A DNA stretch of 64,000 nucleotides from a virus, in IMG/VR virus record IMGVR_UViG_3300032516_000004, positions 32,001-96,000 of that record; one strand, written 5' to 3'. Shown here piece after piece: positions 16,465 through 43,670 of the stretch. A program made the translations under genes and the position numbers. Positions within the stretch are counted from its first letter, which is position 1; every line of letters begins with the position of its first letter. The notes below the pieces were generated by a model. That model worked only from the letters and a program-made list of their open reading frames with translations. It was not told the origin of the DNA and searched no databases.

Positions 16465-16498
16465 CCCCTCATTGAGGGAGGCTTATAAGGAGCTTACT

Positions 16499-28603: not shown

Positions 28604-28845
28604 GTTGGATCCTTTACCACAGTCATTGATCTTTTATTACATTCTGGGCATTTATATTCGTATGTTCCCGGTATTTTGGGTGCTGGGGGTGGGTGGTGAT
28701 ATTGATGCCTACATTGTTGCTTGTCGGCGGTGTACGATCCCGCAAACTTAGCTCTTGCTCTGTCTAATAAGATTTTAACCCTATATGGTGGAAGGCTATG
28801 TACCATATTGTGGTTCATATATTCTATTATAGTCGGTAGCATCAT
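28597..28845 (-). CDS. Small Cys/His-rich hypothetical protein (start may be a later Met)
   Basis: CRH.YH.PP...YEYKCPECNK Zn-ribbon-like motif; chained overlaps with neighbours. Confidence 0.55.
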   Translation of the reverse strand: MMLPTIIEYMNHNMVHSLPPYRVKILLDRARAKFAGSYTADKQQCRHQYHHPPPAPKIPGTYEYKCPECNKRSMTVVKDPTW

Positions 28846-29323
28846 TTATGTTTTGGTCTAACATAAATGCCCGATCCCAAGTAAAACTAAATTTGTTGAT
28901 AATGTCGGTAATTAATTTTTTGTCAGTTATTACAATAGAACAGTCAAACATTGTGCTGGGGGACCAATTTCTTCCACCAAGAATTGCTACCGGTTTTGTC
29001 CCATAAATTATTACACATTTAAAATGACTTTTAGGTAATACTCGACAAGTCATTTGATGCCCGATGTGTTTCGAAATGCTCCTTGCTTTCTCAACGCATT
29101 TATCAAATGAAGTATTGGTTTTTAATTTTAGGAAACCATTTTTAGGTGGAGCGCCAATTAACAGTCTACATGGAATATTGCGACCCTTAATCATATTTAA
29201 CATGTTAGACGCTTGTTTATATAGAATAACACCATACGATGCTATGTCCACACGCTTAGCATCTAAAAGCTTATTTTGAATGAATCGCCAATATTCCTGT
29301 TCATCCCAAATAAGTTCAGTCAT
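28796..29323 (-). CDS. Single-domain phospholipase D-fold nuclease-like protein
   Basis: VDIASYG...RLLIG...SHFKCVII......ILGGRNWS is a degenerate HxK(x4)D(x6)GSxN motif. Confidence 0.6.
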   Translation of the reverse strand: MTELIWDEQEYWRFIQNKLLDAKRVDIASYGVILYKQASNMLNMIKGRNIPCRLLIGAPPKNGFLKLKTNTSFDKCVEKARSISKHIGHQMTCRVLPKSHFKCVIIYGTKPVAILGGRNWSPSTMFDCSIVITDKKLITDIINKFSFTWDRAFMLDQNINDATDYNRIYEPQYGT

Positions 29324-29514
29324 TTTGGTTTTTGTAGTTTTTTAATTCCTGTTAAAATCATGTCGTCAGCATCATTTGTTAATAACATATCACCATCTTC
29401 TAACCATGGATTTCTTATCAAAATAGTAATTTTAGTTTCATATGGTCGATCAAACATTTGAGCAATTTTATTTAAATAACCGCTAATCTCTCGATGCGCG
29501 TCTTGTATATTCAT
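29320..29514 (-). CDS. Small hypothetical protein
   Basis: 4-nt overlap with the next gene; ITILIRNP..DGD motif. Confidence 0.6.
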   Translation of the reverse strand: MNIQDAHREISGYLNKIAQMFDRPYETKITILIRNPWLEDGDMLLTNDADDMILTGIKKLQKPK

Positions 29515-29515
29515 T

Positions 29516-29899
29516 CTATTTGTCTTCCGGTATGGTGTGAGTTATAGTGTATTTAGCTTCTGTTAGCGGGTCAGGTTTTAAACCATTATAATTACAGATG
29601 AGACATGGTGTGCTATTCATGATTACACCAATTGGTTTCATAGGGTGTTGATGACGAATCCACCCACCGTCACATTTACATGTTACGTTTCCAGCTCCGA
29701 TTTTATCAATATACTGGGTAACTAATTCTCGATTATTTTCAATCGCCCAACGAAGATCAATGCGTTCTCCCTCAAGGACACCATCAACTATTCCAACCAC
29801 GGCATTAAATAGTTGACTGTCGATTTTAATGGGATCAATACCACGATTAACTAAACCGTTAGTTACGATGTCGATTGCAGCTTGAATGTTTATTGACAT
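29516..29899 (-). CDS. Hypothetical protein with C-terminal Zn finger
   Basis: CKCDGGW...PCLICN; tightly packed in the operon. Confidence 0.6.
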   Translation of the reverse strand: MSINIQAAIDIVTNGLVNRGIDPIKIDSQLFNAVVGIVDGVLEGERIDLRWAIENNRELVTQYIDKIGAGNVTCKCDGGWIRHQHPMKPIGVIMNSTPCLICNYNGLKPDPLTEAKYTITHTIPEDK

Positions 29900-30394
29900 T
29901 TACCACCACGGCCATCTATCGTTAGGTCCGTCAATCCATTGTTCTCTTGGAACGTTCACCAATTGCCCCGCTCGTTTTCTAGCCATTCGTTCAGCCCAAC
30001 AATCCAAATATGGGTGCCGATTCTTTTGGAATAAGTATATAACGATCATATGACCCATATAGGTAACATAAAACAGTAGACCTAACCACAACCATTGCCA
30101 ACAATGTGTGCCCTCGTGAACCACTATTCTAGCAACCGATGCATCATCTTCTGGTCCAACTTCATCACGATAAACCATAAATAAGAATAATCCAACTCCC
30201 GCCCAATCCTTCCAGAGTTTATCATGCCACTTCTTCATCCGATAAGATAAACGAAATTTTACAAACGCACCACATCTACCAGTGTGAATGAAATCACCAG
30301 ACCAATACCCACATAGGGCATAGATCCAACATATCACGAGCGGAGCCACCCAATTAAATGATATGATAAAAAGAGTTGTTTGCCACCAATTCAT
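29900..30394 (-). CDS. Membrane-associated HExxH (zincin-like) protein
   Basis: VVHEGTHCWQ..LG..FY..Y...Y...AE..A; hydrophobic segments. Confidence 0.65.
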   Translation of the reverse strand: MNWWQTTLFIISFNWVAPLVICWIYALCGYWSGDFIHTGRCGAFVKFRLSYRMKKWHDKLWKDWAGVGLFLFMVYRDEVGPEDDASVARIVVHEGTHCWQWLWLGLLFYVTYMGHMIVIYLFQKNRHPYLDCWAERMARKRAGQLVNVPREQWIDGPNDRWPWW

Positions 30395-30396
30395 TG

Positions 30397-30927
30397 TTAT
30401 ACCTCATTACCCCAGTGATCCCAGTTTGAGCGTATTTCCCTTGCGAACATCTCAAGTCTAGGACTTGGACTTATACTTTCAAAATAAGCAAATGCCTCAT
30501 CGGGTTTCTTGCTATGTCGAGTTCTTGTGGCAAATACCACTGATGGCTTTCTATTTATTGGTTTTGGCACCATCGCGGCACCACGTGTACCCAATAGACA
30601 CAGTTCGTGAGATCCCATGATGTATCGACCAAGACCTTTTTGCAATTTCCCATTAGCGCCCATCTTGACCCACGCGATATGAGTTACATACCTAAACCCA
30701 ATGTCTTTCATCACTACCAAGGCATCAGGAAGATGATTTAAGGTCACCCACATCCACAGATGGGCGTCCACATCAACGAAGTCCCAACACGGCGAATTTA
30801 GAATGACACGTACAACGTCTGGGGTACGTAGAAGGTTGTAGTGCTTGTCAGAACCACGTTTTATTTTACCACCACCTGGTTCCCACCACGGTGGATCAAC
30901 TACAACACATTTATACATAATTATCAT
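30397..30927 (-). CDS. MT-A70 family N6-adenine methyltransferase
   Basis: VVVDPPW, HLWMWVT, ELCLLGTRG, HSKKPDE, RLEMFARE. Confidence 0.9.
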   Translation of the reverse strand: MIIMYKCVVVDPPWWEPGGGKIKRGSDKHYNLLRTPDVVRVILNSPCWDFVDVDAHLWMWVTLNHLPDALVVMKDIGFRYVTHIAWVKMGANGKLQKGLGRYIMGSHELCLLGTRGAAMVPKPINRKPSVVFATRTRHSKKPDEAFAYFESISPSPRLEMFAREIRSNWDHWGNEV

Positions 30928-31199
30928 CCACGTTTAAGCTCATCTATTGCTGGATAAGCTTTACCACGTCCTGGTTTTCTAAACCATCCTTTCAAACCAT
31001 CTCTTGGTATATAAGTACCAAAACATCCTTGACCACATATGTCTTCAACATTACGTAATTTACGTGCGGCGTCTATTGTGATTTTACCACAAGCATTACA
31101 AAGCGAAGCCATTACCACCTTATTTTTAATGTGGACATGACCAGATTCATATTCGACGATAGATGACCCACATACCACACAATTTACTGTACTAGCCAT
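30924..31199 (-). CDS. Cys-rich hypothetical protein (ATG 31199 preferred)
   Basis: CVVCG...CNACG...CGQGC; short overlap with the upstream gene. Confidence 0.55.
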   Translation of the reverse strand: MASTVNCVVCGSSIVEYESGHVHIKNKVVMASLCNACGKITIDAARKLRNVEDICGQGCFGTYIPRDGLKGWFRKPGRGKAYPAIDELKRG

Positions 31200-31686
31200 T
31201 TTGCATCCCCGCTCTCTCACCAAGTTCCTTCCTCCACCAATATTGCCCTTCACCTTCTTGGCGAGCCCTAAAATTGGTATATCCTAGAGCCCAACGAATT
31301 GCATTCTTGAGCTGTTTGATTTGTTTCTTATATTCTTTAAGCCTTTTGGTTAAATACAAGTTATCAAATGGTTTTCCTTTGCCATAGAATACTTTGAAGA
31401 ATTCCTGGGCCGACAATTTACCATTATTATCAAATGTGAGGAATGGGACATCAATAAAATAGTCTGATTTTATGGTTGGCAAAATGTCATAGACACACCG
31501 CCATGAACATAGATGTAAATGCTTACATGCGTGATCCTGGGTAAACACTTTGATCTCTAAGTATTCTCGATCATCCTTATTGAAGTCAATTAGTTGCTTA
31601 CACCAATCGCAACCATATGTGGCCTCAGACATGATTTTACGACTTCCACACTTACATGTTTTATATTTTGCCTCTTTTATAAGCAT
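31192..31686 (-). CDS. Cys-rich hypothetical protein (ATG 31686 preferred)
   Basis: GGAGG SD before ATG; CKC, CDWC, HLCSWRC motifs. Confidence 0.6.
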   Translation of the reverse strand: MLIKEAKYKTCKCGSRKIMSEATYGCDWCKQLIDFNKDDREYLEIKVFTQDHACKHLHLCSWRCVYDILPTIKSDYFIDVPFLTFDNNGKLSAQEFFKVFYGKGKPFDNLYLTKRLKEYKKQIKQLKNAIRWALGYTNFRARQEGEGQYWWRKELGERAGMQNG

Positions 31687-31722
31687 ATGACCTCCAAATA
31701 TAGGGAATTGCAAATTTTGTGC

Positions 31723-31935
31723 CTATGTCTCCCTATCATATTTCTTACAAGTATGGATTCGACCGTTTTGGTTAGCTAATCTCCAACCTCGTTCAGTTAC
31801 CACCCACTTTAAATATTTATGACCACAATATCTACATGTAAATGACCGTGGATATTGATCTTCTTGTTCACATTCCCATTCATTGTCCCAATTGTCCAGG
31901 GCATCATTGATAGCGTCGTCTGCCATATCGCCCAT
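31723..31935 (-). CDS. Small hypothetical protein, first gene of the inverted island
   Basis: MGDMADD...TCRYCG...W...W.L, a common small phage protein pattern. Confidence 0.6.
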   Translation of the reverse strand: MGDMADDAINDALDNWDNEWECEQEDQYPRSFTCRYCGHKYLKWVVTERGWRLANQNGRIHTCKKYDRET

Positions 31936-31968
31936 ATCCAGATATAGTTCTCCAGTAATTCTAATATA

Positions 31969-31996
31969 TTGCTAGCATGCCTGTAAGCTCTACTAT
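31969..31996 (+). promoter_or_regulatory. Sigma70-like promoter TTGCTA-N16-TACTAT
   Basis: In the divergent intergenic region; similar element at 40209-40236; predicts a transcript start near 32003. Confidence 0.5.
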
Positions 31997-32002
31997 TTTA
32001 TG

Positions 32003-32176
32003 CTTGATGGTTTAGTGCCACCGCTAGACTATTTAGTTTCACCCCCACTTGGTGGGGCGGCTGCTTCGGCAGTATATAAACTGTTCCCAGCCCGCAATTT
32101 CGCGAGCTGTAGAACAAGGTGGGATAACACCCGTACCCTTGGCATAGGGTACAAACGATCGAGGGGCTGCTCGTGT
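32003..32176 (+). ncRNA. Highly structured RNA/leader, omegaRNA(HEARO)-like candidate
   Basis: At least six hairpins in ~150 nt including a cUUCGg tetraloop; 79/140 G+C in 32041-32180 by hand count in an AT-rich genome; directly precedes a PLMP-like domain. Confidence 0.6.
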
Positions 32177-33109
32177 ATGGGCCGGTCTCAGGAAATTATC
32201 GTCCTCGATTCGGAGCGACGATTTCTCGAGTATACGCGACCTGGGACTGCGAGATTGTTGCTAAAAGAAGGCAAAGCACGTGTTTTCTCTAGGCAACCAT
32301 TCGCAATAATGCTCTTACGCACGGTGTCAGCTGCCGAGATTAGAAGGAGAATAGTCATGCCAGCACCCCGTAATTTTACTGAGTATTTCCGTAACGAGAA
32401 GGATGTGTACGTTCAGAATCTTGCGAACGCACAGGTATCCTGTGAATTCCCTATTGGGCCTAATAGGGTCGAGGGATTCACGTTCCCACACAATCGGGAC
32501 CCCATCAATCTGACTCAACATATTCCATTTCATGCTATTAAAGATTCCATGGACTTTCGTAAAATGTTGAGCCGTAGACCCCCAGCCCTTCAACTTTTGA
32601 ATGAAGAAGAATATAATGCTTATTTTGAGAAAAGAGCATCACAACAGGGATTAAAAGATAGATCTGGGAAATTAGATATTGATGCGGCTATTGACTCGAG
32701 TGAGGAAAAGCGTCGTCGAACCGCAGATAAAAATCTTCGTGAGAATGTAACTGATAAAGACCCAGAACCCATACATGAAGTTATTGAAAGCGGTACCGGT
32801 CCCAAGGGTGCTACTCATTTTGGGGAACGTAACCGCGTAATGCCAAAAGAAGTTGTAGCAGAAGACGATATTATTAACCCTCGAGTTCTTCATCTTTGCA
32901 ATCAGGTAAAGAATGAGATTCCTGAAGAAGAAAGAATGCCTGCCAAAGACCTGCTTGATGAACTCCAGGGACTTCCAGATTTGAAACTTGATGATCTTGA
33001 GCATATTCGTGCTCATGGATTTTACAAAAGCGTGAAAAAATGGAGTAAACAGAAAATGTCTGAAATATCAGACAGTGAAGAAGCTGAAAACACTTCAGCT
33101 GACGAGTAA
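32177..33109 (+). CDS. PLMP/RRXRR-like N-terminal domain fused to a virion-region protein (internal start at 32357)
   Basis: IIVLD...TRPGTARLLLKEGKARVFSRQPFAIML fits the IscB/RRXRR N-terminus; second SD AAGGAGA plus ATG at 32357 starts the MPAPRNF domain. Confidence 0.7.
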   Translation: MGRSQEIIVLDSERRFLEYTRPGTARLLLKEGKARVFSRQPFAIMLLRTVSAAEIRRRIVMPAPRNFTEYFRNEKDVYVQNLANAQVSCEFPIGPNRVEGFTFPHNRDPINLTQHIPFHAIKDSMDFRKMLSRRPPALQLLNEEEYNAYFEKRASQQGLKDRSGKLDIDAAIDSSEEKRRRTADKNLRENVTDKDPEPIHEVIESGTGPKGATHFGERNRVMPKEVVAEDDIINPRVLHLCNQVKNEIPEEERMPAKDLLDELQGLPDLKLDDLEHIRAHGFYKSVKKWSKQKMSEISDSEEAENTSADE

Positions 33110-33113
33110 TACC

Positions 33114-33476
33114 ATGAATGAATTTACATGTCTTAGTAAAAAGTTAACTATTGCAGCGGCTGGTATTGAAACCATCGGATTAGAAACTGGATATCCATAT
33201 AGGAACTATACCGCTTGGGTATCTATTCCTACACTTGGTATTCTCAATGTGTCGGTTCAGCCAATGTTTGGTGGTTTTACTGATGGTGCCGCCACAACAT
33301 TTACGGCTGCAGGTGTAAAGAAGGCAAAACAAGCGACAACCGATGAGTTGCGACCATCTACTAGAGGCTATCAGTCAACTGATGGCGTTTTACCATTAAA
33401 GAGTGAAATAGTAATTACTAATAGTGGTGGAAGTCCAATCGAAGCCAATATATATTTATTGGCGTCACAAGGATAA
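33114..33476 (+). CDS. Hypothetical beta-rich protein, possible virion decoration (ATG 33114)
   Basis: Follows the previous stop by 4 nt; beta-sandwich-like composition. Confidence 0.55.
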   Translation: MNEFTCLSKKLTIAAAGIETIGLETGYPYRNYTAWVSIPTLGILNVSVQPMFGGFTDGAATTFTAAGVKKAKQATTDELRPSTRGYQSTDGVLPLKSEIVITNSGGSPIEANIYLLASQG

Positions 33477-33486
33477 GGAGATTGTT

Positions 33487-33837
33487 ATGACCGAGGAAAC
33501 TAAGAAGTCCACATTTAAGGAAATTGTTCAATTTGTTTATGGGTGGTTGAAGAAGATTAGTTTGCAAATATTTGGCGGCTTATTCATGGAACAGAAAAAC
33601 GGCGAGAAGCTGTGGGTTGCGTCCATGGGTAAGGTATCATTCTGGATTGTATTTGGACACTGTTTGTATATTTGGAATACTACCACCGAAGCCGTAATTG
33701 AAGGCGTAAATACTATTATGCGTGGTAATGTTAGTGACGGTGAACTTTATATTTTGATGACCCTAGTTGGATATCAGGGCGCTAAGCTTGGTAAAGCCAC
33801 TATCGTAGAAGGTATTGCAGCATTTAAAGGTAAGTAG
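33487..33837 (+). CDS. Membrane protein, holin-like candidate (ATG 33487)
   Basis: SD AAGGAG; SMGKVSFWIVFG..LYIW and LYILMTLVGY..AK hydrophobic segments. Confidence 0.5.
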   Translation: MTEETKKSTFKEIVQFVYGWLKKISLQIFGGLFMEQKNGEKLWVASMGKVSFWIVFGHCLYIWNTTTEAVIEGVNTIMRGNVSDGELYILMTLVGYQGAKLGKATIVEGIAAFKGK

Positions 33838-33839
33838 TC

Positions 33840-34178
33840 TTGAAAAACTACGGTCGCTGGATTGTTTTCGGTCTAGTAGCGGTGGGGATCATTACCCTAC
33901 TGCTACTAGTTGGGGTTAACAAGGACCTTAGACAACGCTTGATAGCATTGTTACTCGAACGTAAAGTTAAAACAGCAATTCAAGGCCTTCAAGAACAGGC
34001 CACAACTGCTAAAGCAAAGGCACAAGCTAATCAGATGAGTGCTGAAGAAGCCGAACGAGCTGCTAGAGTTACTGCGGACGCGATTGCTGAACAAAAGCTG
34101 GCCCTTCAATCAGAGTATAAGCAACAAGGATTAACTGCCAATGAGATTGCTGAGCGTTTTCGCGGTCTTGGTATTTAG
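33840..34178 (+). CDS. N-terminally anchored coiled-coil membrane protein (i-spanin-like candidate)
   Basis: TTG start; one TM (WIVFGLVAVGIITLLLLVG) followed by an Ala/Glu/Gln coiled coil. Confidence 0.5.
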   Translation: MKNYGRWIVFGLVAVGIITLLLLVGVNKDLRQRLIALLLERKVKTAIQGLQEQATTAKAKAQANQMSAEEAERAARVTADAIAEQKLALQSEYKQQGLTANEIAERFRGLGI

Positions 34179-34608
34179 TTCTTCTGTTTATGCGCAGAAG
34201 ATCGATCGTGCTGAGATCACAAAGGCTGTTAAGGACCTAAAACCCGTTGTTGTTAAGAACCAGGGTGCTGATGGTATTTGGTTCTCTACTGGAGATGCTG
34301 AAAAATTGCTAAATCTAGTAGAGAAGAAATTACCACTAGCTTTAGACATTATTGACGCACAAGACCAGCAAATAACATCTTTAAATACTGCTATTAACCT
34401 TTATAAGCTTACCATCCAATCGTATAATGAATACGCAAATTATAATAAAGATATGTTAAATACTGCTCTTAAATACTTCCCGGAGCTTAGACCCCCAGAA
34501 CCACCATTTTATAAACAACCAGTAGTGGTGTATATTGGTGGTGTTCTTACAGGCGCTGCTATCATTGTGGTTTCTGCATACGTGTTAGACAAAACACACG
34601 TAAAATAA
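34141..34608 (+). CDS. Exported protein with signal peptide and C-terminal TM segment
   Basis: MRLLSVFAVLVFSSSVYA signal; coiled coil; VVVYIGGVLTGAAIIVVSAYVL; 38-nt overlap with the upstream gene. Confidence 0.6.
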   Translation: MRLLSVFAVLVFSSSVYAQKIDRAEITKAVKDLKPVVVKNQGADGIWFSTGDAEKLLNLVEKKLPLALDIIDAQDQQITSLNTAINLYKLTIQSYNEYANYNKDMLNTALKYFPELRPPEPPFYKQPVVVYIGGVLTGAAIIVVSAYVLDKTHVK

Positions 34609-43625: not shown

Positions 43626-43670
43626 CCCGATGATTGTCGGAGACCTTAAGGTTTAACAGGAGTTTTAGTC

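Follow-up and report, generated by a model that had tools for sequence, protein, structure and literature searches.

A nuclease-free PLMP domain of the IscB type and a structured leader RNA in a late-gene module of large uncultured phages

OMEGA systems are transposon-borne RNA-guided nucleases and the ancestors of Cas9. What, then, does an IscB-like PLMP domain do when it stands, without any nuclease, in front of an unrelated phage gene? The question is raised by a viral genome in IMG/VR (record IMGVR_UViG_3300032516_000004; 177,941 bp, rated complete), of which positions 32,001-96,000 were analysed as one stretch of 64,000 nucleotides (nt), called the window below and used for all coordinates unless stated otherwise. 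A preliminary description of this DNA had read the locus as the 5' half of an IscB element, that is, a structured RNA and a PLMP domain, grafted onto a structural gene. We find that 32001-33109 is one old, family-wide late-gene module of large uncultured phages, consisting of a leader RNA, a PLMP domain and a protein here called X. We hypothesize, with roughly even confidence, that the nuclease-free PLMP domain and a hairpin of the leader are a pair for translational control of their own gene, and perhaps of a few late genes.

A single frame is open on the plus strand from 31976 to 33109, and within it a 60-codon segment (32177-32356) is free of stops and continues in frame into ATG 32357. The coding features of the module are as follows.

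32177..32356, + strand: PLMP segment, 60 codons; the domain (32195-32338) is followed by a linker whose codons spell an internal Shine-Dalgarno (SD) sequence
32344..32359, + strand: internal ribosome-binding site; AAGGAG at 32344-32349, then a spacer of 7 nt, then ATG 32357, where the short isoform X begins
32357..33109, + strand: protein X, 250 amino acids (aa); conserved N-domain, acidic disordered middle, helical C-domain

A protein-database entry for 32000-33109 is a 369-aa call from ATG 32000 that reads across the structured RNA, and is probably an artefact. In relatives the frame of that call closes a few codons 5' of the conserved AUG, so that 32177 is the credible first start.

Is the segment a PLMP domain at all? 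The likeness to IscB that had been seen by eye is borne out by both profile and fold. The Pfam hidden Markov model PF14239 (RRXRR) matched residues 7-54 of the 60-aa segment (codons 32195-32338) with 37.9 bits (cut-off 25) and E 2.2e-9; of the 174 profile positions the match takes in just 1-48, the PLMP part, and it was reproduced in a scan of the whole 177,941-bp record, where it is the sole match. PHROG 2214 (HNH endonuclease) was likewise matched via the N-terminus only. An AlphaFold2 model based on 46 homologues contains a confident strand-strand-helix-strand-strand fold at residues 7-46 (predicted local distance difference test, pLDDT, about 90), and its comparison with 48,161 PDB representatives by VIA-align placed five solved IscB/IsrB PLMP domains at the top (Z 9.2, 8.8, 8.3, 8.0 and 7.8). 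These superpositions have root-mean-square deviations of 1.3-2.6 A over 49-53 residues at 28-37% identity, the one on 9k30_A reaching 1.3 A over 51 residues at 37% identity, and the next unrelated match has Z 6.3. With Foldseek the top ten matches to the PLMP model were all IscB/IsrB, with IF3 N-domains further down; a remote likeness of PLMP to IF3 was likewise reported by Hirano et al. (PMC9581776). Conversely, a profile made from the phage PLMP domains retrieves bona fide IscB/IsrB N-termini that run into the RuvC-I motif. Two residues, R26 and P41, are invariant among the 46 homologues and nine more PLMP positions are at least 90% conserved; the eponymous P-L-M-P motif of strand 2, which in IscB makes contact with RuvC and RNA (PMC9640706), is itself replaced, by F-L-E-Y in the window and in relatives by ILSY or FLLP.

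Nothing of the nuclease follows. Directly after PLMP, no RuvC (motifs I-III with bridge helix) was found by Pfam, PHROG or fold search, and Pfam detected neither an HNH nor a TI domain in the gene; together with a profile match that ends at position 48 of 174, this confirms that the segment is a true PLMP domain without nuclease, as the preliminary description had it. Many database open reading frames (ORFs) of 52-130 aa match the phage PLMP profile, and many of these short matches are truncated IscB genes. Among the database proteins P0129, P0133, P0148, P0230 and P0177, some have two or three tandem PLMP repeats and one has PLMP fused to a PP-loop ATPase-like segment, from which PLMP seems to be mobile beyond IscB and this phage family.

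Protein X itself matched no Pfam or PHROG family, and no Pfam nuclease family was found among 51 members. Modelled alone, its N-domain (pLDDT 83.5) gave a best Z of 4.8 against the 48,161 PDB representatives and matched neither RNase H nor RuvC; the proteins that resemble it in structure are uncharacterised and come from the jumbo phages PaBG, Motura, BcepSaruman, JA11 and Y3. A likeness of residues 137-188 to ribbon-helix-helix proteins (Z 4.2-4.7) is weak, lacks support from Pfam and is no more than a lead, and the capsid-gene neighbours of phage Motura were rejected as X homologues by hhalign. Since X has no known family or fold, the earlier label of a structural or virion protein is not sustained and amounts to an assumption from gene position. 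The acidic middle of X (residues about 197-231, window 32765-32870) is predicted to be disordered and differs in length among subgroups. Its C-terminal helical domain ends in a basic helix and an acidic tail, and recalls scaffolding proteins, by resemblance only.

How old is the arrangement, and is it maintained? A protein search yielded 110 homologues of X, on contigs of up to 205 kb; about half of the calls are 290-330 aa long with PF14239 and about half are about 250 aa long without it. The short calls are mostly choices of the gene caller, as in L003, where an intact in-frame PLMP lies 5' of the called start. Scans of viral and metagenome contigs added 110 further loci, and among about 60 distinct loci PLMP is mostly in frame with X and ahead of it, a state seen in about 50 distinct relatives, with the same PLMP-X fusion present in virus Rctr197k at 29% identity. 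In L066, L074, L076 and L116/L117 PLMP has a small ORF to itself immediately ahead of X, and this ORF either uses a different frame or closes with a stop, after which come an SD and X; covalent fusion to X is therefore not essential. PLMP is absent in about ten loci, and in L002/L035, whose X is 82-84% identical to that of the window, a 32-nt deletion removes the PLMP core helix and breaks the frame while X is intact.

Where PLMP is kept, it is under purifying selection: the pooled ratio of non-synonymous to synonymous differences (pN/pS) over nine pairs is 0.185 for PLMP (111 non-synonymous and 188 synonymous differences), as against 0.153 for the X N-domain. This selection, the residue conservation and the spread down to 29% identity exclude both decay and recent grafting for the family. 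An intact frame had been taken earlier as a sign of function over decay, which the pN/pS and the family-wide retention support, and the alternative of a recent harmless remnant is rejected for the family despite the loss of PLMP in some lineages. Comparison with relatives thus gives a double answer, PLMP being kept in most of them, and missing or stripped of its core in the others. The proposed graft of RNA and PLMP onto the gene does not stand as a recent event, given its family-wide occurrence; what gains support is a common OMEGA origin of the two parts, through the form of the leader hairpin P2 described below.

The gene would be read from two starts. An SD-like motif lies 3-12 nt before the conserved internal ATG in 50 of 54 distinct fused loci, which supports the two pairs of SD and start that had been noticed in the one frame. 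The internal SD is AGGAG, spelled by an IRRRK linker, in the window's group, and GGGAGG, spelled by a DPREA linker, in a distant group; that the same signal is encoded by different linker peptides argues for selection at the nucleotide level. The conserved internal SD and AUG suggest that X is translated on its own, with a long PLMP-X made from the upstream start, and we infer from these signals that both starts are used. Gene callers choose the internal start in about half of the database entries. For AUG 32177 the only SD-like sequence is a GAGG 12-14 nt upstream. Mean minimum free energy is -14.6 kcal/mol for windows around the upstream start and -9.6 kcal/mol for those around the internal start, a difference that is weak once composition is allowed for; a test for extra structure around the first start gave only a small difference in z-score, which is gone outside the type I leaders.

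Directly upstream of the first start lies the structured RNA that had been predicted there. Its parts, all on the plus strand, are these.

32001..32184, + strand: structured leader RNA, type I, about 185 nt; helices P1-P8 and a pseudoknot (covariance model R1, 134.7 bits, E 8e-42)
32003..32036, + strand: P1 hairpin, 13 bp; all 13 pairs covary, loop with near-invariant CCACC at 32018-32022
32043..32057, + strand: P2 hairpin; CCCCAC/GUGGGG, loop UUG, 5' flank UUUCACC; 5 of 6 pairs covary
32082..32116, + strand: P4/P5, a long hairpin with interruptions; both partners vary in 11 of 12 pairs
32118..32132, + strand: GGUGGG...CCC element that provides the pseudoknot's 3' strand; does not vary among type I leaders and shares positions with a possible local hairpin, P6
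32133..32152, + strand: P7 hairpin; 6 of 7 pairs covary, 99% of cells paired
32169..32182, + strand: P8 hairpin, 3-4 bp; AUG 32177-32179 in the loop, GUGYAUG invariant

Compensatory changes are obvious when the sequences upstream of the gene are aligned within the window's group, and model R1 (186 positions, 50 pairs) was built from these sequences. In the leader alignment, which was fitted to the structure model and so favours pairing, 92.7% of cells are paired as against 42-44% with slid partners, a large margin over the controls; both partners vary in 44 of 52 pairs, and covariation scores 0.61, as against 0.09-0.14 in the slid controls. The loop of P1 pairs with GGUGG at 32118-32122, 100 nt downstream, to form a pseudoknot (CCACC x GGUGG) in all 16 sequences that have letters there; one compensatory change is seen (CAACC/GGUUG in L042), and G1, G2, U3 and G5 of the GGUGG motif are invariant. 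R1 matched 16 full copies (the seed loci), one partial copy and one weak 5' half, with no second copy in the rest of its own genome and nothing in IscB loci. In more distant members the leader is of a compact type II, in which P2 and the following hairpin are retained, both with many compensatory changes, and a local hairpin at the place of P6 covaries there. Rfam gave nothing credible for the leader, either at the gathering threshold over the whole window or with E up to 10 on 31850-32450.

Is this leader an omega-RNA? The HEARO covariance model (RF02033) had no match in the window's leader (E up to 10) or in the leaders of four relatives (E up to 5), and was positive in two IscB control loci (85 and 105 bits). 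With HEARO absent here and R1 blank in IscB loci, the leader as a whole is not omega-RNA, and the reading of the module as the 5' half of an IscB element finds no support; the likeness is confined to the terminal hairpin. That hairpin was examined in 80 IscB/IsrB loci, over the last 70-90 nt before the start codon. A permissive form (AC-stem-loop-stem-AG) occurs within the last 70 nt in 62 of 73 distinct IscB loci, a form that 10% of shuffles pass too, and on visual inspection the majority of the 62 have the pattern AAAC(A/U)UUAC, C-stem, GNRA-type loop, stem-G and AGG, the last being the SD (36 aligned). The phage P2 has this IscB-like form (UUUACC-stem-loop-stem-GAG), and some copies are near-identical in pattern to those of IscB.

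A model of 25 nt made from the IscB hairpins alone (R2) proved too short, and we replaced it by an explicit motif count with background and controls. The strict motif (T-N-A-C-C, a stem of at least 4 bp, a loop of 3-6 nt, then AG) is present in 32 of 59 distinct PLMP leaders and in 39 of 78 IscB loci; it is found in none of the 11 upstream regions of PLMP-less X genes, and the rest of the phage loci has 18 in 843,732 nt (0.004 per 180-nt window). In solved structures PLMP holds the terminal hairpins and touches the SD (PMC9581776, PMC9640706). As P2 has the form of the hairpins so bound, the phage appears to keep two interacting halves of the OMEGA interface: PLMP and P2 would be the counterparts of two parts that contact each other in OMEGA systems, the N-terminal PLMP and the SD-bearing 3'-terminal hairpin of omega-RNA. 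The shared form of the hairpin does not prove descent.

The RNA also keeps company with PLMP in the genome. Most relatives have the order major capsid gene (PHROG 2522), RNA, PLMP-X, an order that is broken in the window's phage, where 52 kb separate PLMP-X from the capsid gene (G000:115835-117094, locus L121, outside the window) and the latter has just a plain hairpin behind it, along with an ORF whose N-terminus is helix-turn-helix-like. The distant capsid gene with its plain hairpin indicates that the RNA travels with PLMP-X and moved with it as a unit. X genes that lack PLMP have only a plain hairpin and SD upstream.

Two further sites in the window have the form of the IscB hairpin.

16466..16478, + strand: candidate IscB-type hairpin copy; UUAAC, CCCUC-AUU-GAGGG, AGG; 20 nt before ATG 16499
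43627..43640, + strand: candidate IscB-type hairpin copy; AUAAC, CCGAU-GAUU-GUCGG, AGA; 30 nt before ATG 43671

ATG 16499 opens a 106-aa ORF with its own SD, and ATG 43671 is the start of the first tail-tube paralogue. They belong to nine hairpin matches in the genome, three of which are placed 2-48 nt ahead of an ORF with an SD, against an expectation of about 5% (p roughly 0.01). The tail-tube hairpin is kept at the orthologous site of L202 with compensatory changes (CUAAC/GUUAG), and there is no clear copy at that site in L203, L204 or L205. In L005, L006, L008 and L009 a second IscB-type hairpin, again with compensatory changes, precedes a conserved gene of 87-121 aa, 2.5-3.2 kb downstream. 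In two distant relatives (L083, about 1606; L101, about 1621) the PLMP codons themselves contain an IscB-type hairpin, directly ahead of the internal SD of X.

We therefore propose a working model of translational control, held at the even confidence stated above. AUG 32177, placed in the loop of a hairpin and served by a poor SD, would give a minor long isoform, PLMP-X, and AUG 32357, with its strong SD, would give X alone. The PLMP domain of the long isoform would bind the IscB-type hairpins in its own leader, and in lineages with a stop between PLMP and X a free protein of about 70 aa would do so; hairpins that precede a few other late genes are probably bound by the domain as well, and translation would be tuned as an autogenous or small-regulon switch. 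Binding of PLMP to IscB-type hairpins, and the direction in which regulation runs, we infer. Of two functions considered earlier, an autoregulatory ribonucleoprotein switch and an RNA tether, the evidence leans to the switch, widened to a small regulon. A fuller regulon of OMEGA origin, in which the nuclease-free PLMP, either set free from the long isoform of X or exposed on it, reads hairpin tags before the SDs of late genes (its own, the tail-tube gene and others) to time or balance the synthesis of virion proteins, is possible and distinctly more tentative. Bolder still is the idea that the 185-nt leader might be a stable ribonucleoprotein partner of X with a role in assembly.

Several observations weigh against the proposed control. 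Some lineages can do without PLMP, having lost it while X remains, and homology between the leader and HEARO omega-RNA was not detected. In the window itself P2 misses the strict motif, solely at the 3' AG (GCG instead of GAG). A leader motif cannot be recognised in about one third of the PLMP loci, so that PLMP does not require the leader. The distance from P2 to the start of PLMP is 35-130 nt, as compared with an SD distance in IscB; the window's copy is a variant 120 nt from the AUG, and the hairpin of Rctr197k is 11 nt before the start. The enrichment of the strict motif (nominal binomial p 2e-61) ignores shared ancestry, and of the 16 weak matches of model R2 only 2 were leaders, which made it unreliable for finding the phage hairpins. 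Genome-wide, the hairpins are not above shuffled sequences (nine against two to eight), and the extra copies are only partly conserved.

Other explanations of the same locus have to be set against translational control. PLMP-X might instead be a tether that binds the leader, which in most relatives comes directly behind the capsid gene on one transcript, and so either brings X to the site of capsid synthesis or loads the particle with an RNA, inside or on its surface, in the manner of the phi29 pRNA; the order of capsid gene, RNA and PLMP-X kept in most relatives, the usual fusion that physically joins PLMP to X, and a leader whose eight helices and pseudoknot go far beyond the needs of a simple operator would all suit it. 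We consider this unlikely, as PLMP is a separate ORF in several lineages and need not be linked covalently, the module of the window's phage is 52 kb from the capsid gene, X is not known as a virion protein and matched no family or fold, and hairpin copies before other genes fit regulation better. It is also conceivable, and to our judgement improbable, that PLMP and leader have nothing to do with each other, PLMP being a protein-docking or ribosome-contacting domain like the IF3 N-domain, and the RNA a terminator, processing or stability element after the capsid gene. PLMP does pack against RuvC and TI in IscB/IsrB (PMC9581776), IF3 N-domains are among the fold matches, P1 is a GC-rich hairpin followed by U's that looks like a terminator after the capsid gene, and a third of PLMP loci do without the motif. 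Independence is hard to reconcile, however, with the absence of the motif beside all 11 PLMP-less X genes, which have a plain hairpin and SD, with the joint move of RNA and PLMP-X away from the capsid gene, or with P2, whose form is that of the hairpin bound by PLMP in IscB; a near-invariant P1 loop and a pseudoknot with a compensatory change would be unusual for a mere terminator.

Two further readings are very improbable. The whole protein might be a much-decayed, nuclease-dead IsrB with a degenerate RuvC/RNase H fold in the N-domain of X, which does begin where RuvC-I begins in IscB and whose predicted order of elements (three strands, helices, strand, helices) loosely recalls the start of RNase H; yet the search of 48,161 PDB representatives brought up no RNase H or RuvC (best Z 4.8), the 51 members include no Pfam nuclease family, and X genes without PLMP exist. 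Nor does much speak for the idea that an old IscB insertion has left a neutral, functionless remnant which merely happens to be read through: the loss of PLMP in some lineages, and the deletion of its core in the close relative L002/L035 with X intact, agree with it, whereas the selection data contradict it (PLMP has a pN/pS similar to that of X), as do the residues invariant among 46 homologues, the arrangement kept down to 29% identity and the covariation of the adjoining RNA.

The module can be set beside several known systems. With the IscB/IsrB OMEGA systems (PF14239; RF02033; 9K30, 8DMB, 7UTN, 7XHT) the module shares the PLMP family and fold, a structured RNA directly 5' of the ORF, and a hairpin (UUAC, C-stem-loop-stem-G, AG(G)) resembling the PLMP-bound terminal SD hairpin. 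It differs from them in lacking RuvC, bridge helix, HNH, TI and the HEARO core, with no guide-bearing scaffold evident; in the replacement of the PLMP motif by FLEY or ILSY; in a hairpin that is 35-130 nt from the start; and in its place in a phage late operon rather than in an IS200/IS605 element. IshB-like and stand-alone PLMP proteins, too, use PLMP as a separable module, and some of the phages have it on an ORF of its own ahead of X. IshB, described in the 2021 OMEGA study, reportedly still carries HNH, whereas the partner here is a non-nuclease phage protein.

Among phage autogenous operators, the pseudoknot in the T4 gene 32 leader, T4 RegA and the MS2 coat-replicase hairpin likewise have a structured leader around the start codon and a product with an RNA-binding domain, and the small set of hairpin-tagged genes may form a comparable regulon; unlike in those cases, the putative binding domain here is of transposon-nuclease origin and is present only on the long isoform or on a separate upstream ORF. 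Nested gene pairs such as lambda C/Nu3 and T7 4A/4B also have one frame, two SDs and starts, and a shared C-terminus, matched here by the internal SD in 50 of 54 loci; their extra N-terminal part is a protease or primase domain, whereas that of PLMP-X is predicted to be an RNA-binding module, and the two parts are separate ORFs in some lineages.

A literature search found no description of PLMP in such a nuclease-free phage setting. The module would be a case in which the protein-RNA interface of OMEGA alone has been kept and reused beyond DNA cutting. If the binding is true, a domain of about 50 aa and a hairpin of about 15 nt would be a compact natural pair usable as an RNA tag and reader; it would suggest that IscB/IsrB control their own translation via the same contact, and would represent a new kind of late-gene control in large phages.

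The surroundings of the module have a few features of their own. Upstream, the divergent intergenic region contains one promoter candidate.

31920..31948, + strand: sigma-70-like promoter candidate; 9 of 12 positions in a consensus scan

Sites of this kind are no commoner here than in shuffled sequences, which makes the support for the candidate weak; it would place the structured RNA at the 5' end of the transcript. A word like ATTGCTAGC occurs at 31968-31976 and recurs just 5' of the gene in L049, L055, L058, L060, L074 and L076, relatives without the capsid gene upstream. Because ATTGCTAGC is not enriched in the window (12 sites as against 14 expected), it was rejected as a general promoter word.

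Between the portal region and the leader, 28796-31935 is a minus-strand block of eight or nine small ORFs, several with zinc-ribbon-like CxxC pairs; the matching place in a close relative holds an MT-A70 methyltransferase, and the block looks like an inserted cassette. Past X and its 120-aa neighbour, 33424-34608 contains three small ORFs with hydrophobic segments and coiled-coil-like stretches, two of which are conserved in L003 at 42-53% identity.

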